DNA from: a virus
Lineage: Duplodnaviria > Heunggongvirae > Uroviricota > Caudoviricetes
Strand: one strand, 5' to 3'
Length of the DNA: 35,535 nucleotides
IMG/VR virus record: IMGVR_UViG_2872152978_000002
Made by a program: the position numbers and the translations under genes. A model generated the notes under the pieces. The model was given only the letters and a program-made list of their open reading frames with translations, was not told where the DNA came from and did no database searches. Positions 6,877-28,748 of the stretch are shown here, piece by piece (position 1 is the first letter of the stretch; the number at the start of each line of letters is the position of its first letter).

Positions 6877-6971
6877 CCGTTTAACTCCGTGGTTAATGGG
6901 TGCAACTATTTTCTGTTGTACAGAGCATGAGACGCTATTTGATCTGTCTGGTCAGTGGATGAAACAACAGA

Positions 6972-6999
6972 TACAGAAAAGGCGGGCAATTCGCCCGCC
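6972..6999 (-). terminator. Hairpin with T-run (minus strand) upstream of FI, left edge of the cargo island
   Basis: GGCGGGC-AATTC-GCCCGCC stem-loop at 6981..6999, followed on the minus strand by TTTTCTGT. Probably the backbone terminator that separates the tail-fibre operon region from the FI late promoter. Confidence 0.4.
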
Positions 7000-7063
7000 T
7001 GTCCTAGTTTGTACTCACTCATTTTCCGACTGACAATTTACATAGCCAAAACGCTATCAAATC

Positions 7064-7096
7064 TGACAGTCTGCTTTGAGCGAAAAGCAGACTGTC
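7064..7096. repeat. Perfect 14-bp-stem inverted repeat upstream of the HNH gene
   Basis: TGACAGTCTGCTTT-GAGCG-AAAGCAGACTGTCA; no clear T-run on either side, so it could be an operator or RNA structure rather than a terminator. A degenerate copy lies at 8077..8115. Confidence 0.7.
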
Positions 7097-7212
7097 ACGC
7101 GTTGAAGTTAATTGTATTACTTAGATAAACACTATCATTTTCCTGACGTTAAGTTGTATCTTTGATAGGATTAAAAAACGTATAGATAGCTTATGCTACT
7201 GAGGGAATAAAA

Positions 7213-8022
7213 ATGACGAAAATTAGTGAACGATGGAAGCACAATGGCATTACTGAAGGTTATTGCAATATTTGTGGGAAATATGGCTTGCTCACAAAAG
7301 ATCATGTTCCTCCAAAGTGCGCCATAACCTTAGGCCCTGTTTTGCAGAAAACAGTTAGCGAATTTTTTGGTATTCAGGAACCAGTTAAACCATTAAATGC
7401 TAAAAATGGCTCTTATTTCAGAACCATTTGCAGCCACTGTAACAATAAGGTATTAGGTGGGCTCGATGTTGCAATTGAAAATGTAACAAAGTCCTTTAAA
7501 GAACAGTTAAGTCGATATATGAATGGTATGAATGTATATCCATTCATTAGAATACCTTTTGATAGCATATCTTTCACTAAGGCTATGATTGGGCACGTGC
7601 TATCAGCAACTTCAGTTGAAGATTGTAAAAAAGAACCCGTAGATAGCCCCTTCTATACACCTTTAAAGGATTATGTTTTGGGTAAAAATTCAAGTTTTGA
7701 GGAAACTCATGATATTTACTACTGGTTTTACCCACACAGAATGCACATATCCGCTCAAAGTGTAGCATTTATGAACGAAGGACATGTGGCATTTATTTGT
7801 GCTTTACATTTTTTTCCTATCGGTTTTATTATCACAATGAAAAATGAAGGAACATACCCTGCCCACTCTACAAAATTAGAACTTGAAGATAAATTCCTTA
7901 CATTTAATATGACCTCTATAAATTATGAGTATACGACATTTCCATTTGTAAATCTTAAGGGAAACCAAATGTATGCGATAAGCAACGGTCATACTTGTGT
8001 GAGTTATCCAATAATTAAGTGA
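7213..8022 (+). CDS. HNH-motif nuclease-like protein with an unknown C-terminal domain, 269 aa
   Basis: N-terminus carries C-x2-C (CNIC), DHVPPK, a conserved Asn and C-x2-C-N-x-K (CSHCNNK), the spacing typical of zinc-bound HNH endonucleases. GAGGGA Shine-Dalgarno before the ATG. About 35% GC, unlike the P2 backbone. C-terminal ~190 aa has no motif I recognise. Confidence 0.75.
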   Translation: MTKISERWKHNGITEGYCNICGKYGLLTKDHVPPKCAITLGPVLQKTVSEFFGIQEPVKPLNAKNGSYFRTICSHCNNKVLGGLDVAIENVTKSFKEQLSRYMNGMNVYPFIRIPFDSISFTKAMIGHVLSATSVEDCKKEPVDSPFYTPLKDYVLGKNSSFEETHDIYYWFYPHRMHISAQSVAFMNEGHVAFICALHFFPIGFIITMKNEGTYPAHSTKLELEDKFLTFNMTSINYEYTTFPFVNLKGNQMYAISNGHTCVSYPIIK

Positions 8023-8162
8023 CGGCTAAATCATACAATCTACGCATGTTCACTTTCTACATATACCATCTATAATGTCCGCTGTTGGCACAAAGCAGAC
8101 GCCCACTCTCACGCGAATGCTTTGCCCTTGACTTGCCAACAACCGTATCGCTTGCTCCGCAA

Positions 8163-9440
8163 CTATGGTTTTTTATTAGAATCTTCGCCACTAAATAAAT
8201 TATAATAAATTGATTTTATTAGATATCTGTCAGAATCTATATGGTCAGCACGAGTAGCATGCTCTAATGTTTCAAATGCTAGGGTTTGTGCGGCTTCAGC
8301 AAAAATTCCAGGCCAACCCTTACTCAGCATCGACAGTCCTTTAAGGACCCTTATCTGAATTTCCCTCATACTGGCACCATCGCGCGCAACAGGTGAGAAA
8401 AAGTCTTCAAGTAGATCGTTATTCTGAAGTGGTGCAACATGTACAGAAGGATATTTCACTTCTATTTCATCAGATTTATTCTGCGCGTAAGCGGAAAGTA
8501 TACGTACACCTCTGCCAATGACATCAATGGCGGTTCCAGGATCGTTCACTGCGGGGGAAAGGGCTCGGCAGGCTATTTCGGCCATGACGCTAAGACAAAA
8601 TCGGGGGTCCTGAGCAAATGAACGTACATCCGAGACAATAATCGTCTCAAGTAAATCGGTGCTGATTGATGACTCCTGGCCCTGACTCAGGTACAAAACT
8701 GGCGTGGACGGATGTATGAAACTGCCCGGCTGCGCCACGAGGTATACATGACGGGGATCATTGGTCAGCAGCTTGCTGAGTTTCACCATATCAACATATT
8801 CAACATAGCCAATCTTTTTCGGATAAACTGCAACCGTTCCTTTCGGCTGTTCATTGTTCTCAAGCCATGGATATCCGCCGAGACAGGGATTTCTTGCTCT
8901 CGCAATAAATGTTTCGATGGCCGCCTGTTCTACTTTTGCCGTTGTCTCACCAACCCTCCCCAGAGAGGTCAAATGCTGTATCCAGCGAAGCAATGTGATG
9001 AGGATTAAGGCAATGACAACCAGTGTTACAATGAATAAAATGACTCTCCCCCTTTCTCCATAAGCTCCCATATTGAGGGCAATAATCCCTACCAGACTGA
9101 AGAGAAAAGAACCGATGAAGGTGGCCAGTACATTTTGTGTGGTGACGTCTTCAACAACTAAACGAGTAGCTCTGGGAGTCACATTAGTAGTGGCTGAACC
9201 GTAGGCTGTGACCATGATGCTCAGCGAAAATGTGGTCACTGCCAGCATACTCGATGCCAGTATGTTCAGAATGTTATCGACTGCTTCCGCACCAACCTTC
9301 ACGGAAACCGACTCAGGTATCATTGATTTAAAAAGAATTGATAAAAGGGCCGTTATTATTGCGACAATTGCGAATAACGTTGCCCTGAACCATAGTTTTT
9401 TAAATGTCTGCTTCAGCATCCATTTCCAGCGTGAAATCAT
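8163..9440 (-). CDS. Membrane protein with four N-terminal TM helices and a ~250-aa soluble domain (DUF2254-like, from memory)
   Basis: Four hydrophobic segments in the first ~160 aa. Start placed at the Met preceded by GAGGGA (the track ORF starts 15 nt upstream, inside the terminator T-run). Family assignment is from recollection only. Confidence 0.55.
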   Translation of the reverse strand: MISRWKWMLKQTFKKLWFRATLFAIVAIITALLSILFKSMIPESVSVKVGAEAVDNILNILASSMLAVTTFSLSIMVTAYGSATTNVTPRATRLVVEDVTTQNVLATFIGSFLFSLVGIIALNMGAYGERGRVILFIVTLVVIALILITLLRWIQHLTSLGRVGETTAKVEQAAIETFIARARNPCLGGYPWLENNEQPKGTVAVYPKKIGYVEYVDMVKLSKLLTNDPRHVYLVAQPGSFIHPSTPVLYLSQGQESSISTDLLETIIVSDVRSFAQDPRFCLSVMAEIACRALSPAVNDPGTAIDVIGRGVRILSAYAQNKSDEIEVKYPSVHVAPLQNNDLLEDFFSPVARDGASMREIQIRVLKGLSMLSKGWPGIFAEAAQTLAFETLEHATRADHIDSDRYLIKSIYYNLFSGEDSNKKP

Positions 9441-9461
9441 TCTGCATTCCCTCATATTGCA

Positions 9462-9492
9462 GCCGGGATAAATAAATGCCGCCTCTGTGGCG
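9462..9492 (-). terminator. Intrinsic terminator between the BCCT transporter gene and the downstream membrane protein gene
   Basis: ATGCCGCC-TCTGT-GGCGGCAT hairpin followed on the minus strand by TTTATTTATC, 12 nt after the transporter stop codon. Confidence 0.55.
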
Positions 9493-9503
9493 GCATGTTG
9501 CTG

Positions 9504-11507
9504 TTAACGAACCAGATGCAGGAAGTGCAGGTGTTTTTCGTACTGGTCCAGTATGTCATTAATCAGCTGTTCCTGATTCCAGCCCATTACATCATAATTT
9601 TGGCCGCCCTCTTTGAGATAGACTTCAGCGCGATAATATCGATGTTGTTCACTCTGCTGCTCATCATTATCCAGCGCAGCGAGCGCGAAGGTCGGTGAGT
9701 TATACCCGCGAAGCCTCACTTCATATATATAATTCAGCTCGTTGCCCAAATCGACTTCAAGGCGAATACGATCCTCGGCGGCGTCACTGATGTGGCTTAT
9801 CGTTCCCTGCTTGTTAAGTTCCTCCTGAACCAGCGTCATGGCGGGTTGGATAATGTCGTCCATAAAACGTTTCACAAGAGAGCGCTTCGGCAAATACGCG
9901 ATATTGCGTAACCTTCTCTGCCAGGGAATTGGGTTACGTGCAGCCGTAGGAGCAATAGTCGCCATGCTAAGGCTTTCACGCTTGGTCAAATCCCGACGCA
10001 GGGCTTTTAACAGTCCGTATATGGATATTAATAAGATAACTGAGAAGGGCAATGCACTCGCTATCGTTACGGTTTGCAACGCACTCAGCCCCCCTGCGAT
10101 CAGCAGGGCAATAGCAACAACGCCCATGAGCAATGCCCAGAAAATTCGCTGCCAGACGGGCGTGTTTGCCACCCCACCTGATGCCAGAGTATCCACAACC
10201 ATTGCCCCCGAATCAGCAGACGTTACAAAGAAGACGATGACCATCGCCATTGCAATGAATGACAGCACGGAAGAGAACGGGAAATGCTCCAGGAAATTAA
10301 ACAGGGCAAGCGCAACATCCTGCTGAACGGTATTGGCGAGGTCAGTGGCGCCCTGGTTCATGATGAGATAGATGGCGCTGTTTCCAAACACCGTCATCCA
10401 CATGAGCGTAAAGCCGGCGGGAACAAACAACACGCCAGTCACGAACTCACGAATTGTCCTGCCGCGGGAAACGCGTGCAATGAACATACCTACAAACGGC
10501 GACCATGAAAGCCACCATCCCCAGTATAATAATGTCCAGCCCCCCAGCCAGTTGCTCGACTTGGGTTCATACGCGTAAAGGTTGAACGTTTTACTCACCA
10601 GTTCCGACAGATAACCACCCGTATTTTCCACAAATGACTTCAGCAGAAGCACAGTGGGACCCAGGCACAAGACCAGCGCCAGGAGCAACACCGCCAGGCC
10701 CAGATTAAGCTCAGACAGGATGCGTATTCCCTTGTCCAGGCCGGACACCACCGAAATCGTCGCTAACCCCGTGATGACCACGATCAAAATGACCTGTACC
10801 GTTTCATTGATGGGCACGCCGAAAAGATGGTTCAAACCGGCATTCACCTGCAATACACCGTAACCCAGCGATGTTGCAACGCCAAAGACAGTGCCTATCA
10901 CGGCGAAGATATCAACCGCGTGGCCTATAGGCCCGTAAATGCGATCGCCGATAATGGGATAGAGCGCAGAACGCAGCGTTAAAGGCAGACCGTGACGGTA
11001 ACTGAAAAAGGCCAGAATCAGCGCCACGATGGCATAAATTGCCCATGCGTGCAGACCCCAGTGGAAGAACGTCAGGCGCATGGCTTCCTTCGCTGCCGCA
11101 ACGGTCTCTGGAGTGCCGACAGGTGGCGAAAGATAATGCATCACAGGTTCGGCAACGCCAAAGAACATCAGGCCGATCCCCATCCCTGCCGAAAAAAGCA
11201 TCGCGAACCAGGAGTGGTAGCTGAAATCAGGCTGCGCATGGTCTGGGCCCAGCTTTATATCACCGTAACGTGAGAGTCCAAGGAACGTGACGCTCAGTAA
11301 AATCAGGGCCACAGCAAGTATGTAGAACCAGCTGGCATTCGTGAAGATTTGTTGCTGAAGTAGTTTAAAATTTTTGTCGGCGACATCCGGGAATACGGCG
11401 GCAAAGGCGACAAGAAGGAAAATTAGCAAAGCAGATGTAAAGAATACCGCTTTGTTAACCTGGCTTGTAGACTTCTTTGGGGTTGTATCATTTTCACTCA
11501 TAATCAT
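9504..11507 (-). CDS. BCCT-family transporter, BetT-like (choline/betaine type), 667 aa
   Basis: BCCT signature GWTLLYWGWWLSWSPFVGMFIARVSRGRTIREF; overall collinear with E. coli BetT as I recall it, including the C-terminal ...DILDQYEKHLHFLHL tail. Confidence 0.85.
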   Translation of the reverse strand: MIMSENDTTPKKSTSQVNKAVFFTSALLIFLLVAFAAVFPDVADKNFKLLQQQIFTNASWFYILAVALILLSVTFLGLSRYGDIKLGPDHAQPDFSYHSWFAMLFSAGMGIGLMFFGVAEPVMHYLSPPVGTPETVAAAKEAMRLTFFHWGLHAWAIYAIVALILAFFSYRHGLPLTLRSALYPIIGDRIYGPIGHAVDIFAVIGTVFGVATSLGYGVLQVNAGLNHLFGVPINETVQVILIVVITGLATISVVSGLDKGIRILSELNLGLAVLLLALVLCLGPTVLLLKSFVENTGGYLSELVSKTFNLYAYEPKSSNWLGGWTLLYWGWWLSWSPFVGMFIARVSRGRTIREFVTGVLFVPAGFTLMWMTVFGNSAIYLIMNQGATDLANTVQQDVALALFNFLEHFPFSSVLSFIAMAMVIVFFVTSADSGAMVVDTLASGGVANTPVWQRIFWALLMGVVAIALLIAGGLSALQTVTIASALPFSVILLISIYGLLKALRRDLTKRESLSMATIAPTAARNPIPWQRRLRNIAYLPKRSLVKRFMDDIIQPAMTLVQEELNKQGTISHISDAAEDRIRLEVDLGNELNYIYEVRLRGYNSPTFALAALDNDEQQSEQHRYYRAEVYLKEGGQNYDVMGWNQEQLINDILDQYEKHLHFLHLVR

Positions 11508-11822
11508 TTATTCCATTAATTAAATCCGCACTGGATAGAAGGTACTACCTCTCACAGAGTAGCAAAGTTCAACTGGCTATGCGGGATTAATCGGAATGCA
11601 TGGTGGAATGAGTGCCGATACAAATCATCCTATATTCTAAGGAGTTTTAAGTTACTCAGCCTGCCAATTACTGGGGCATTTAATTTGTATGATCTGTATC
11701 AAAGCTGGGATATAAGTTAAGTGAAGTATATTAGGCACGAATTACCAGCGTCTGCTCTTGGCACAGAGCGGACTGTCAGATTAGACTTTACTCTGTGCTA
11801 TAGGTATGTCAGCTCATACAAC

Positions 11823-15890: not shown

Positions 15891-16238
15891 TCAACTCACA
15901 GGGATGGTTAACGAAAGTGGCTGGCCGGTGTCGTTGTGCTGACCGGTTAACGTGACCGTCATTCGCCCGTCAAAACTGCGCGCCGTGGTGACGGATGACA
16001 GGGTGACGCGGGGTTCCCATTTCAGCACTGCCATGTAACAGGCGACCTTAATCTGCAACTCAAGCGCCGGGGTCTGCGGCTGGTCAATCATTGATGCCAG
16101 CAACGAGCCGTAATCACGACGCATCACCCGTGAGCCGACCGGTGTGCGCAGGATATCGCCGATACTCTGGCTGATATGCTCAAGGTCAGTGACCGTCAGG
16201 CCATCACTGCGATTCATTCCGAGATAACGCGCTGTCAT
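15891..16238 (-). CDS. W: Baseplate protein W, 115 aa
   Basis: 115-aa ORF downstream of V; P2 gpW length and position. Confidence 0.88.
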   Translation of the reverse strand: MTARYLGMNRSDGLTVTDLEHISQSIGDILRTPVGSRVMRRDYGSLLASMIDQPQTPALELQIKVACYMAVLKWEPRVTLSSVTTARSFDGRMTVTLTGQHNDTGQPLSLTIPVS

Positions 16239-16863
16239 AGAGGACTCCCGGTTGTGCCGCCGCTGTCGCCGGGGTGTTTATGGGTATGCAGTACCTTCCC
16301 GTTTGATGAAAGTTCACCGCCGGTGTGTTCAATGTTGCCGCGCATCGTCCCGCCCTTCTGCACTTCCAGCGTGCCGGTAATCAGCTTGTTGGTGCAGACC
16401 ACCTCCGGTGTGTCCAGGGTGACGCGGGTTGATGCTTTCACCATGACCACCGGCACCGTGGCAGTAACAGAATCAGAAGCCGTCACGCTGGCCGTTTTAA
16501 TTCCGCTTACCGTGAGTGCACTGGTTTCAGGTTCATACTCAATCACCGCCCCGTCAGGGAAACGGATATGCAGGGCATCCGCCGACGCCGACGGCGCGGG
16601 TTATCGCCGGAATAAATCCCCGGCAGAACGAACGCCGTGTCGAGTTCACCGCCCACGGCCAGAATCAGCACCTGTTCCCCCACGGAAGGTGCCCACCATG
16701 TGCGCGAACGACCGGCGCGATGGGTCAGCCACTGAAGCCAGTCGGTGCACATGCCGCCGGTCTGCACACGGCAGCGACCGGCATTAAGGTCGGTTTCGAC
16801 GATAATGCCAGTGCGAATCATATTGCGTATAAAGCGAAGAATTTCATTGTATTGTGCATTCAT
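16235..16863 (-). pseudogene. V: Baseplate spike gene V, split by a frameshift (or sequencing error)
   Basis: N-terminal part (MNAQYNEILRFIRNMIRTGIIVETDLNAGRCRVQTGG...SGDN) and C-terminal part (...ADALHIRFPDGAVIEYEPETSALTVSG...GSPL) lie in different frames. They join if 2 nt are removed or 1 added near 16596..16600 in a GCGCCG-rich run; the joined length is about that of P2 gpV (211 aa). Confidence 0.7.
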
Positions 16864-16949
16864 TCGATAATAATGATTCTGTACAATCTCGAAGTAAATC
16901 ACACCACGATTTCTGGTGCACAGAACAACAAGGGACAACAAAATCCATT

Positions 16950-18023
16950 ATGAGTACTTACTTTTTCTCGTCAGAAACAATGAAAGAATTGTTCAAAGAT
17001 TATCTGGTCTTTTTGAACACGCTGACTCCCGGCACAAACTTTGAATCAAGCAGAAACAAAATAATTGCTCAAGCAATAAACTTCATTTCCGAAAACCCTG
17101 AAGATTGGGACAAAAAATCCCAGTACAACATTGCTATGATTGGCGACACCTTTAAAAGTTTCTTAAGAGAAAAGGGAGAAGATAACAACAGCATCAACCT
17201 TATATTCACTTGCTTTTTTAGATTTATCATTGAACCAAGCATTCTCTCTCCGGAAATAGAGTCTCACTTTTCACCACTAAGAACCATCAAGGATTTTGCT
17301 CTGTATAACTATAATGAATTCGATGAGCGGAGCAGAGCACAGATAGACTTTTCTCTTAGAGAACTGCCATTAGCAATGGTTAAAGAAGTTTTAAGCTCCA
17401 GCAATGTTGACACATATAAAAAATACATTGATAGTTTAAACGAAGGGCGTCAATTTTTCGAAAAGTGCGACTCCTTCTTAAAGGAGCAACATGCCAAAAT
17501 AGAGTCAATCAAAGAGTCATTAAAAGGGTATGAGGTCGCATTTAATTTTGTTGGATTGTTTGAAGGCTTTAATTCACTTGGCAAAAAGAAAGAAAGTGAA
17601 ATCATGCTATCAAGAATAATTCTTATCATCTTGGCTATAATCATTCCCTCCCCGCTGATATACTATGGAATGCATAAATTACCAGCTCTCGAAACGACAA
17701 ATGCTGCCACATATTTTATGTCAGCACTACCTTTTGCATCAGTTACATTGATTTTCATGTATTACTTTAGAGTTGTACTGCTAAATCATATATCGTTACG
17801 AACTCAGATTATGCAAATAGAACTCAGAAAGAGCCTTTGTCAGTTCATTCAGAGTTATAGCGACTATTCCTCAGAGATAAGGAAAAACAATCCGGAAGCG
17901 CTTTCAAAATTCGAAGACGTAGTATTTTCAAACATCATGCTATCCGATGATAAGATACCATCTACATTTGATGGCATTGAGCAAATAGCATCGTTAATCA
18001 ATTCATTAAAAAATGGAAAGTAA
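16950..18023 (+). CDS. Hypothetical 2-TM membrane protein (~357 aa) at the P2 orf30 moron position
   Basis: AT-rich ORF divergent from V. Mostly helical N-terminal ~240 aa, then two hydrophobic helices (IILIILAIIIPSPLIYYG and YFMSALPFASVTLIFMYYFRVVLL) and a ~90-aa tail. Followed by an intrinsic terminator. Start codon uncertain (weak Shine-Dalgarno). Confidence 0.6.
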   Translation: MSTYFFSSETMKELFKDYLVFLNTLTPGTNFESSRNKIIAQAINFISENPEDWDKKSQYNIAMIGDTFKSFLREKGEDNNSINLIFTCFFRFIIEPSILSPEIESHFSPLRTIKDFALYNYNEFDERSRAQIDFSLRELPLAMVKEVLSSSNVDTYKKYIDSLNEGRQFFEKCDSFLKEQHAKIESIKESLKGYEVAFNFVGLFEGFNSLGKKKESEIMLSRIILIILAIIIPSPLIYYGMHKLPALETTNAATYFMSALPFASVTLIFMYYFRVVLLNHISLRTQIMQIELRKSLCQFIQSYSDYSSEIRKNNPEALSKFEDVVFSNIMLSDDKIPSTFDGIEQIASLINSLKNGK

Positions 18024-18027
18024 TGAT

Positions 18028-18058
18028 AAAAGGCCAATAACTGGCCTTTTATTTATTA
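18028..18058 (+). terminator. Intrinsic terminator after the orf30-position cargo gene
   Basis: AAAAGGCCA-ATAAC-TGGCCTTTT hairpin followed by ATTTATT, 5 nt after the stop codon. Confidence 0.65.
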
Positions 18059-18125
18059 ACATGAAAATTCAAAATAAATTATGCTAATCAATTGATTTCT
18101 ATCTTATATTCTCAGATGATTAAAG

Positions 18126-18578
18126 CTAACGATTCAGGTGAGCCAGGATAATCTCTTCAATCATCTGCACATCCTCACCGGTAAAGCCGAGCAGAGGACG
18201 CGCCGGATATTCAATTTTCTTACCGTCTTTCCGGGTTTCTTCCGACAGACCGAACTGATGCACACTGGCTATTTTCGGTGACTTCCCGCCGTAAAACTCC
18301 ATTGATGCCTGTTCAGAGCTGGCGCGGATATGCAAAAAACGACTGGTGATAAGTTTCGCAAACATTTTTCGCTTAACGCGACCGGTCTTTTTTCTGGCGC
18401 TCTGCTGCTGGCGTGGTGCGTAGGGTGTGCCGTCCGGGGCTTTCTGTGCCATCACCCGACGCTGCTGACTCTGACGCAGACGTTTCGCCAGTTCGGCGCT
18501 CAGTCGCCGACGCCCTGACGGTGACAGCGACTCAATCAGTCCGGTCAGCCTGTCTTCAAAACGCTTAAACTCATTCAT
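18126..18578 (-). CDS. S: Tail completion protein S, 150 aa
   Basis: 150-aa ORF downstream of R; P2 gpS length and position. Confidence 0.88.
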   Translation of the reverse strand: MNEFKRFEDRLTGLIESLSPSGRRRLSAELAKRLRQSQQRRVMAQKAPDGTPYAPRQQQSARKKTGRVKRKMFAKLITSRFLHIRASSEQASMEFYGGKSPKIASVHQFGLSEETRKDGKKIEYPARPLLGFTGEDVQMIEEIILAHLNR

Positions 18579-27931: not shown

Positions 27932-28645
27932 TTACACCAAACCCGGGGAATAAGGGCCTCGTGCTAATTCAGGATTAGTCCACATTAAGCAAACTGGGTT
28001 ATCTGAAGTTATAAATGACCCTTGCCCATCAGATATGGTCATAAGTGACCAGTTGCGTTGATGCAACAACTTGGTGATAACAGGTACACATTTCATTTCC
28101 ATATCTATCATGAACTCTCTGATTACATTGATTTCGAAATTATCCCCATCCACAAAATTTTTAATTTTTTCGTAAGCGAGATCATATGGCAAAGACTCAC
28201 CCATTTCTTTCTCATAAGCTAATTTGCAATCGTCCCAACGCTCAGCCGAACTAACTGAGGATTTCATGATAAACTTTGCTATTTGTTTCAATGGAGATGA
28301 TAAATGTTCTCGCTGAGCAGGCGTACGTATTGCCAATAAGGAAATAAACTCCAGAATAACATCTTTGGTTTCGCCTGAAAACTCGCCCCCCTCCTCAAGT
28401 TTTCTTAAATGAGTAGCGACACTGCCTTCAAACTCTGCAAGAGAACTCTCGAGATAGTTTGGGTCAACTCCATCCAATTCTAATCGGTTGAAATCTCTAA
28501 CCCCCCCGACATTGCGAGTATTACTCTCAAAGGTTTTGCGCTCCTTTAAATCTATTACAGTTAATTTTGATTTTTTCCCCCCATTACTTGTAAACCCTTT
28601 CAAATAACATTGGGATAAAAAATGATGATGCCTTGCAACACTCAT
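27932..28645 (-). CDS. DUF4238-like protein at the P2 old/tin moron position, probably truncated by a frameshift
   Basis: Starts MSVARHHHFLSQCYLKGF and contains SDNPV, which I recall as DUF4238 hallmarks. GGAG Shine-Dalgarno 6 nt before the chosen ATG. AT-rich. The reading frame of the downstream 66-aa ORF (27717..27917) is open from 27967, so one indel in the CCCCGGG run would give a ~305-aa product. Confidence 0.65.
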   Translation of the reverse strand: MSVARHHHFLSQCYLKGFTSNGGKKSKLTVIDLKERKTFESNTRNVGGVRDFNRLELDGVDPNYLESSLAEFEGSVATHLRKLEEGGEFSGETKDVILEFISLLAIRTPAQREHLSSPLKQIAKFIMKSSVSSAERWDDCKLAYEKEMGESLPYDLAYEKIKNFVDGDNFEINVIREFMIDMEMKCVPVITKLLHQRNWSLMTISDGQGSFITSDNPVCLMWTNPELARGPYSPGLV

Positions 28646-28748
28646 ACTCAGCTCCGTTATGGCTATAATCGCATAAATAATAAGCACTTATATTGCAATC
28701 ATCTAGTTAAATACACAATATTTATGACTCCGAAATTTCATTAAATCA

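Follow-up and report, generated by a model that had tools for sequence, protein, structure and literature searches.

P2-like prophages are among the commonest prophages in enterobacteria, and one of the accessory genes of phage P2 itself, orf30 (NP_046770), stands in the order S, terminator, orf30 (on the complementary strand), Ogr activator site, V. To our knowledge orf30 is nonessential, its function is unknown and none has been assigned to it since the P2 genome was annotated. Here we describe the gene that lies at the same place in a P2-like prophage, IMG/VR record IMGVR_UViG_2872152978_000002 (35,535 nucleotides; this whole stretch is referred to below as the window). It encodes a protein of 357 amino acids (aa) with two predicted transmembrane (TM) segments and is called the two-TM gene. 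What is new is the unannotated family to which this protein belongs; the type of locus and the proposed type of action are already known.

By position, P2 orf30 is the closest described system. It shares with the two-TM gene the slot between S and V, the antisense orientation and the layout of S, terminator, cargo, Ogr site and V, and orf30-type genes are, like the two-TM gene, AT-rich (guanine-plus-cytosine [GC] fraction 0.34-0.36) and predicted to encode membrane proteins. The products differ: P2 Orf30 has 261 aa and three hydrophobic segments, whereas the protein described here has 357 aa, a two-TM hairpin and large cytoplasmic domains. There is no sequence similarity between them, and relatedness was rejected on a best BLASTP match of E = 1.6 over 16 residues.

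By architecture, the closest systems are the two-TM abortive-infection effectors, which include SLATT proteins, the TM effectors of CBASS, Pycsar and type III CRISPR systems (Cap1, Csx23) and lactococcal AbiZ. These proteins combine a cytoplasmic ligand- or trigger-binding domain with a TM pair and are carried on mobile elements, and their expected output is membrane permeabilisation. The two-TM protein resembles them in architecture, yet it matches no SLATT, Abi or PADLOC hidden Markov model and has no signal-generating partner, so that all the membership features that could be tested were absent. Also unlike those effectors, it carries its TM hairpin in mid-protein, followed by a conserved 79-aa tail.

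Two further accessory proteins can be compared. SieA of phage P22 has 162-164 aa and three predicted TM segments (bioRxiv 10.1101/2023.08.15.553423). Compared by architecture only, both it and the two-TM protein are inner-membrane proteins that a prophage encodes and that stand alone, and both have their best-conserved motif in the cytoplasm; the two-TM protein differs in being twice as long and mostly cytoplasmic. DUF4238 is a single-gene defence of the P2 tin/old hotspot with demonstrated anti-T7 activity (Rousset et al. 2022, PMC9122126). Like the two-TM gene it is a single-gene, AT-rich P2 accessory cargo, and it occurs both in the same prophage and, together with a member of the two-TM family, in a defence island of another genome; it is nevertheless an unrelated soluble protein from a different locus and has been experimentally validated, whereas the two-TM family is known from sequence alone.

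The two-TM gene and its slot

The two-TM coding sequence spans 16950..18023 on the + strand (1,074 bp including the stop, TAA at 18021-18023), antisense to the late genes. It lies between the start of gpV at 16863 and the stop of gpS at 18126, with 86 bp to V and 102 bp to S and no room for a partner gene. GC content is 0.35 in the gene and 0.33-0.37 across 16850-18200, against 0.57-0.61 on both sides. An initial annotation of this DNA had described a low-GC gene of ~1.07 kb between S and V, opposite to the late genes and ending in an intrinsic terminator, and each part of that description was confirmed here.

The longest open reading frame (ORF) in this frame is 16854..18023 (+) and opens with GTG, and the RefSeq entry WP_000661081.1 ('hypothetical protein') is the same frame read from 16980 (347 aa). 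We consider ATG 16950 the biologically supported start because homologues of 350-360 aa begin to align at residues 1-6 and because the ATG is retained in alleles of 91% (MNTYFF) and 76% (MNICFF) identity. Measured against the same two alleles, the ratio of nonsynonymous to synonymous substitution rates is 0.14-0.23, and the ORF is a real gene under purifying selection. The exact cargo module delimited below is present in 60 of 5,426 complete E. coli genomes, or ~4% of the 1,556 with this type of V.

The terminator is a hairpin at 18026..18052 that the gene shares tail-to-tail with the S (late O-type) operon; P2 has an annotated terminator in the corresponding position, between S and orf30. Its sequence is AAAAGGCCA-ataac-TGGCCTTTT, beginning 3 nt past the TAA-TGA-TAA stops and followed by a T-run, TTTATTTATT. 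It folds at -16.2 kcal/mol (z = -4.8; none of 200 shuffled sequences folded as well), and, with an A-run at one end and a T-run at the opposite one, is probably bidirectional. On the opposite flank, the divergent intergenic region of 86 bp (16864..16949) runs from the start of V to the start of the two-TM gene, and alignment with the annotated P2 site places the Ogr activator site equivalent at ~16914-16941, 9 bp from the ATG. Matched against the P2 order, the gene thus occupies exactly the orf30 slot in the orf30 orientation. No Rfam family was found within or around the gene, and no direct repeats or att-like sites flank it.

The slot is widely used by this family and is variably filled among close relatives. 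A scan of IMG/VR with the family profile recovered 80 viral contigs carrying relatives of 31-100% identity. In 69 of them the gene is preceded by V and followed by S, the two being encoded on the opposite strand, so that slot and orientation agree with those of the window. A single flank is visible in six more; in five of these the other flank falls beyond the contig end, while the sixth, L128, has only one flank and no S despite 6 kb on both sides. The gene is co-oriented with the late genes in one contig, and neither flank is seen in four. The same S-V arrangement was found in Pfam-annotated Citrobacter, Cedecea and metagenome contigs and in two Yersinia P2-like phages. Among 79 phages with a gpS at least 97% identical to that of the window, the slot is empty in 53 (81 bp) and filled by an Orf30-type gene in 12, by the two-TM gene in 10 and by an unrelated 278-aa gene in two; the remaining two have a 69-bp near-empty slot and a 253-bp segment without a plausible cargo gene. 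All S-V cargos are AT-rich (0.33-0.36) and antisense to the late genes. The Orf30-type cargo (261 aa) has three hydrophobic segments, and the 278-aa cargo (L181, L189) has none and no Pfam match.

Comparison with an empty-slot relative defined the exchangeable cargo module as 16815..18125. Homology breaks at the S stop codon, so that the module begins at the base after it, and extends to about codon 16 of V, with low GC from ~16830. Since homology resumes only at 16815 (~codon 17), codons 1-16 of V and its promoter region travel with the module, and the N-terminus of V accordingly differs from that of the P2 type (MNAQYNEILRFIRNMI... versus MNTLANIQELARALRNMI...). A recombination boundary was seen within the conserved RTGIIVE-coding segment of V (window 16815-16863; loci L169 and L223). 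At the other edge of the module a 13-nt inverted repeat (18113-18125 and 18155-18167; 92% complementary, 29 nt apart) spans the S stop codon.

The term moron denotes an accessory unit of a phage genome that is transcribed independently (Cumby et al. 2012, PMC3594210). Three of its four hallmarks are seen here, namely a divergent base composition, presence or absence at one position and a dedicated terminator; for the fourth, a dedicated promoter, there are weak candidates only. We regard the two-TM gene as a moron that was acquired horizontally and occupies the orf30 position. The initial annotation had already placed a moron there, and this is upheld by the polymorphic slot of near-identical phages and its AT-rich, antisense cargo.

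Variations on the slot were also noted. In L100 (6654-6968) and L102 (6654-7070) a partial tandem duplication of the C-terminal half (from MLSRIILIIL...) lies immediately downstream of the full gene. Some P2-like phages (L114, L163, L144, L129, L141, L143 and L158) carry a second cargo beside the family gene, for instance at 7192-7857 in L114 and L163 and at 8032-8868 in L144. Examples of such second cargo are a 222-aa protein of the 8xMP Pfam family (octameric membrane protein; E = 2.9e-37), a HigB/HigA-like pair and a protein resembling ORF6N/antirepressor by eye.

Architecture and spread of the family

The AlphaFold2 model of the protein is all-helical, with a mean predicted local distance difference test score (pLDDT) of 78.7. 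It starts with an N-terminal cytoplasmic helical bundle (aa 1-150; 16950..17399, +), the proposed sensor or interaction domain, which when modelled alone gave a compact and confident bundle (pLDDT 93.5, predicted template modelling score 0.89). A stalk helix (aa 151-217; 17400..17600, +), part of a modelled helix 151-231, leads into TM1 and contains at its base the conserved pre-TM motif AFNFVGLYxGFxxLGxxK (aa 196-216, nt 17535-17597). The TM hairpin (17601..17786, +) consists of TM1 (aa ~218-242), a periplasmic loop (243-258) and TM2 (259-279); Kyte-Doolittle windows exceed 1.6 at 214-242 and 259-278, and in the model TM2 runs on into a long helix (252-313) that forms the hairpin. The protein ends in a conserved cytoplasmic tail (aa 280-357; 17787..18020, +) of amphipathic helices with the motifs QIELRKSLCQFIQSY, KFExVIFSNIM and KIPSTFDG, the final ~28 residues of which have a pLDDT below 50. 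Because the ~15-residue periplasmic loop lacks K and R and both of its flanks are rich in them, both termini are predicted to be cytoplasmic (N-in/C-in), and with them ~295 of the 357 residues. The initial annotation had named the same three parts, a helical N-terminal part, a TM pair and a tail, and the topology prediction supports the two TM segments (~218-242 and 259-278); its lengths of ~240 aa for the first part and ~90 aa for the last are corrected here to ~217 and ~79 aa.

Conservation is uneven along the protein. Expressed as mean pairwise identity among 38 diverse members, it is 0.30 in the N-terminal domain, 0.26 in the stalk (151-195), 0.56 in the pre-TM motif (196-220), 0.32 in TM1, 0.13 in the loop (the lowest value), 0.59 in TM2 and 0.64 in the C-terminal tail (the highest). 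Invariant residues cluster in TM2 (P261, Y271, F273) and, for the most part, in the tail with its motifs QIELRKSLCQFIQSY, KFExVIFSNIM and KIPSTFDG; R274 in TM2 is near-invariant. The stalk is 20-40 aa longer in some homologues while the landmarks of the N-terminal domain are unchanged; an exchanged N-terminal domain, suspected from 'two matched stretches' in the alignments, was rejected in favour of such a longer stalk helix. In one and the same set of phages, the family has diverged further (31-45% identity) than gpS (52-64%) or gpV (59-81%).

A word-indexed search returned 346 homologues, all unnamed and without Pfam domains, and an exhaustive profile search returned 927 clusters at 50% identity with E <= 0.001, 666 of them with E <= 1e-30; among the cluster matches listed, nearly all are 350-400 aa long with a single matched stretch. 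The sole match to a defined family was PHROG 9373, of unknown function (E = 1.6e-133). The protein had no significant match in Pfam or NCBIfam, PDB sequences searched with a profile yielded none below E = 0.2, and Foldseek found no match at E <= 0.001 among viral structures. The initial statement that no family could be recognised therefore stands, and homology searches identified no characterised protein.

Relatives also occur outside the P2-like slot. A divergent branch (27-30% identity over the C-terminal two-thirds; 388 aa) is found in the Klebsiella phage pJN2-26 (L003, 4572-5738), where the gene lies antiparallel to the replication genes, between a primase gene and a hypothetical gene. 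The same branch is present in 223 Klebsiella plasmids of ~110 kb (e.g. in strain HS11286), nearly all of which are typed as non-mobilizable. Among 185,579 genomes, one for each species, a scan confirmed 84 relatives, and 80 loci were retained; as the scan used two peptide patterns, 84 is a lower bound. The non-phage hosts comprise Gammaproteobacteria, Betaproteobacteria, Campylobacterota, relatives of Geobacter, Nitrospirales and Bacteroidota.

All-against-all clustering of the neighbours of these 80 loci found no conserved neighbouring gene, and the protein therefore acts alone or with universal host factors. No nucleotide cyclase, SMODS protein or other signal generator was among the conserved neighbours, and the flanks in the prophage are too short for one. 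C39-type ABC exporters within five genes on either side in 10 loci were dismissed as partners because their offsets and orientations vary and because the one locus inspected is an unrelated toxin-export operon. Two loci have a defence-type context. In L251, a compact defence island of a metagenome-assembled genome, the family gene directly follows a type I S subunit gene. In L245 it is carried as cargo by an integrative element that has a D5-type primase and serine recombinases, and a putative AbiC gene (putAbiC) stands two genes away. The island in L251 (567-14767) reads AAA_15/21 ATPase, HSDR_N_2, N6 methylase, Bro-N, type I S subunit, family gene, and then a 334-aa protein of no recognised family (weak NucS_C match), DUF3800, DUF2283, DUF4238 and an N6/N4 methylase. 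One inspected chromosomal copy is an isolated single-gene island with gaps of ~500 bp on each side.

Possible functions of the two-TM protein

We favour the interpretation that the two-TM protein is a stand-alone, prophage-expressed inner-membrane protein that aborts infection by disturbing the membrane, with a probability of roughly 35%. On the broader question of any anti-phage role the balance is about even. We infer expression in the lysogen, an anti-phage function, separate sensor and effector halves and permeabilisation of the membrane. In such a mechanism, the repressed prophage would produce small amounts of the protein, the gene being read in the direction opposite to the late genes. 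The protein would sit in the inner membrane as a helical hairpin, with both the N-terminal bundle on its stalk and the C-terminal tail beside TM2 facing the cytoplasm. The N-terminal domain may recognise a phage product or a phage-induced change, upon which the conserved stalk base, TM2 and tail could rearrange or oligomerise; the membrane would then turn leaky or depolarised and the infection would be aborted.

An anti-phage role is suggested by the moron features of the gene together with the presence of the family in accessory slots of two kinds of temperate element. It is suggested also by the company of the gene, as P2 accessory loci are reported to be reservoirs of defence genes (PMC9122126, PMC9519451, PMC13586616) and a DUF4238 gene is present in the same prophage, and by the defence-type contexts of L251 and L245, the combination of a variable N-terminus with a conserved C-terminus and the faster divergence of the family relative to gpS and gpV.

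More tentative, and rather unlikely in our view, is the extension of this idea in which a new, widespread family of single-protein, membrane-embedded anti-phage effectors starts with this protein. The family would be the signature cargo of the orf30 slot and would be carried as well by the ~110-kb Klebsiella plasmids, which are related to phage pJN2-26, and the promoter of the gene would be interlocked with the V promoter in such a way that the prophage spares itself. Given the 86-bp intergenic region and the position of the Ogr site, a promoter of the two-TM gene has room only where it overlaps the late V promoter core or within V itself. One may speculate that the two promoters are mutually exclusive, the lysogen using that of the two-TM gene, which would be silenced when Ogr switches on late transcription.

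Several results weigh against abortive infection by this protein. At the level of expression, a strict consensus scan found no sigma-70 site upstream of the gene on the + strand, and the closest Shine-Dalgarno-like sequence, AAGGGA, is a distant 14 nt from the ATG. A looser scan gave weak + strand candidates only, which overlap the V promoter region: TTCATT-17-TACAAT, with the -10-like hexamer TACAAT at 16882-16887 (+), and a weak -10-like hexamer GATAAT at 16866-16871 (+). A (C/G)ATAAT hexamer 66-77 nt upstream of the ATG recurs across many diverged loci. The initial annotation had deduced expression from a separate promoter in the lysogen; the 86 bp shared with the V promoter hold weak hexamers as candidates for it, and the strict scan was negative. 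At the level of the protein, none of the 5,027 models of PADLOC-DB 2.0.0 matched at E <= 1, the Pfam Abi and SLATT families were absent at E <= 0.5 from 38 diverse members (with no other family recurring), and fold searches yielded generic helical matches only; some of the latter are membrane-acting four-helix bundles, which we regard as a lead and not as evidence. The literature searched, on orf30, P2 hotspots, two-TM single-gene defences and P2 superinfection exclusion, contained nothing on the family, neither experiments nor transcript data. At the level of context, the neighbours at one and two genes' distance of ~70 chromosomal copies are mostly housekeeping genes, including those for ribosomal protein L13, RNR, MurJ, TsaD and PdxJ, with few integrases, antitoxins or restriction subunits, and in five Acinetobacter species the downstream fadA/fadB-like neighbours are constant. 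The resemblance to abortive-infection effectors that the initial annotation had pointed out thus fares unevenly, supported by the accessory slots, the L251 and L245 contexts and the contrast between N- and C-terminal conservation but not by PADLOC or by the mostly housekeeping neighbours. Systems common in prophages tend to lie outside defence islands (Vassallo et al., PMC9519451), and for this reason the lack of an evident enrichment of defence neighbours weakens the case for a defence function but leaves it standing.

The housekeeping neighbours of most chromosomal copies would equally fit a lysogenic-conversion or general envelope protein with no direct anti-phage role, such as a membrane-anchored cytoplasmic scaffold or a stress protein, which some bacteria would retain in the chromosome and temperate phages would carry for the benefit of the host. 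The Acinetobacter copies, having kept their downstream neighbours, resemble a resident cell gene more than a fast-turnover defence gene, and the strong conservation of the cytoplasmic tail across phyla suggests a conserved cellular partner. The lack of a match in a defence database points the same way. A general envelope function is harder to reconcile with the patchy distribution of the family (at least 84 relatives in 185,579 species genomes, and only five Acinetobacter species), with its typical occurrence as AT-rich single-gene islands, with its strong preference for the P2-like accessory slot and with the defence-island and putAbiC-adjacent contexts. We consider this explanation unlikely, although it survives better than the others below.

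A protein that blocks DNA entry at the inner membrane and leaves the cell alive, as P22 SieA and HK97 gp15 do, would also be an inner-membrane product of a prophage accessory gene, and the Orf30-type cargo of the same slot, with its three hydrophobic segments, is likewise a membrane protein. SieA offers a parallel in standing alone and in having its best-conserved motif in the cytoplasm (bioRxiv 10.1101/2023.08.15.553423). The only part of the two-TM protein exposed to the periplasm is, however, the ~15-residue loop, which is the least conserved region (0.13), and ~295 of its 357 residues are cytoplasmic. With the conserved parts in the cytoplasm or the membrane and only a short, variable loop in the periplasm, interference with DNA entry from the periplasmic face is disfavoured. 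Members of the family are moreover found in many bacterial phyla outside phages, where an entry block specific to a phage type is less obvious, and we judge superinfection exclusion to be improbable.

More improbable still is an accessory factor of the phage's own lytic cycle or of its lysogeny/lysis decision, e.g. a membrane-bound modulator of lysis timing or late transcription. The same slot has been kept across deep P2-like divergence, down to 31% identity, the module takes in the promoter region of V along with its first 16 codons, and the gene starts 9 bp from the Ogr-site equivalent, all of which would suit such a factor. Against it, the gene is antisense to both late operons and lies outside the lysis cassette, phage-free stand-alone copies exist in chromosomes, and the slot is empty in most close relatives, which shows the gene to be dispensable. 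A class II holin or pinholin (<150 aa, two-TM, late, in the lysis cassette) was rejected for a 357-aa protein encoded outside and antisense to Y-K-lysA/B/C.

Other features of the prophage and implications

Besides the two-TM gene and its flanking genes V (baseplate spike; 16235..16863, -) and S (tail completion; 18126..18578, -), we found in the window genes for the sheath, tube, baseplate proteins W, J and I, tail fibre, R, lysis cassette, capsid, portal and replication gene A; the late genes are on the - strand. V is frameshifted. Relative to NZ_CP020835 it has a 1-bp deletion in a G-run near 16597, which results in ORFs 16543..16941 and 16235..16546. An exact match to the window version is absent from all 1,556 E. 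coli genomes carrying the V segment, so the deletion is either a private mutation or a homopolymer sequencing error; if real, the prophage would be defective.

Two other accessory loci of this prophage are occupied. The tin/old hotspot, between gene A and the portal gene, holds the DUF4238 gene (27932-28687, -; PADLOC DUF4238-Pers, E = 8.5e-168) in a region of GC 0.37-0.41. At the Z/fun position (~6900-11800), bounded by sheath gene FI and tail-fibre assembly gene G, lies an unusually large cargo of ~4.9 kb, which comprises an ORF at 7213..8022 (+; 269 aa, GC 0.36, no Pfam or PADLOC match), a DUF2254 membrane protein gene (8163..9455, -) and a BCCT betaine/carnitine/choline transporter gene (9504..11507, -). 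At this position a DUF5677 gene is found instead in the closest E. coli relative.

The observation that drew attention to the two-TM gene is confirmed, and its interpretation as an abortive-infection gene is plausible. The tin/old and Z/fun loci of P2 are rich in new immune systems, and orf30, the S-V slot, is the third classical locus; in most of the viral contigs that carry it, a large, unannotated family that crosses phyla occupies this third locus. If the two-TM protein is not anti-phage, it represents a well-defined family of unknown function that deserves a name. If it is, it would be a new single-gene membrane effector with a built-in sensor, available as a compact and easily tested 1.3-kb module that comprises the promoter region, the gene and the terminator, and it would tell what the S-V slot is for.

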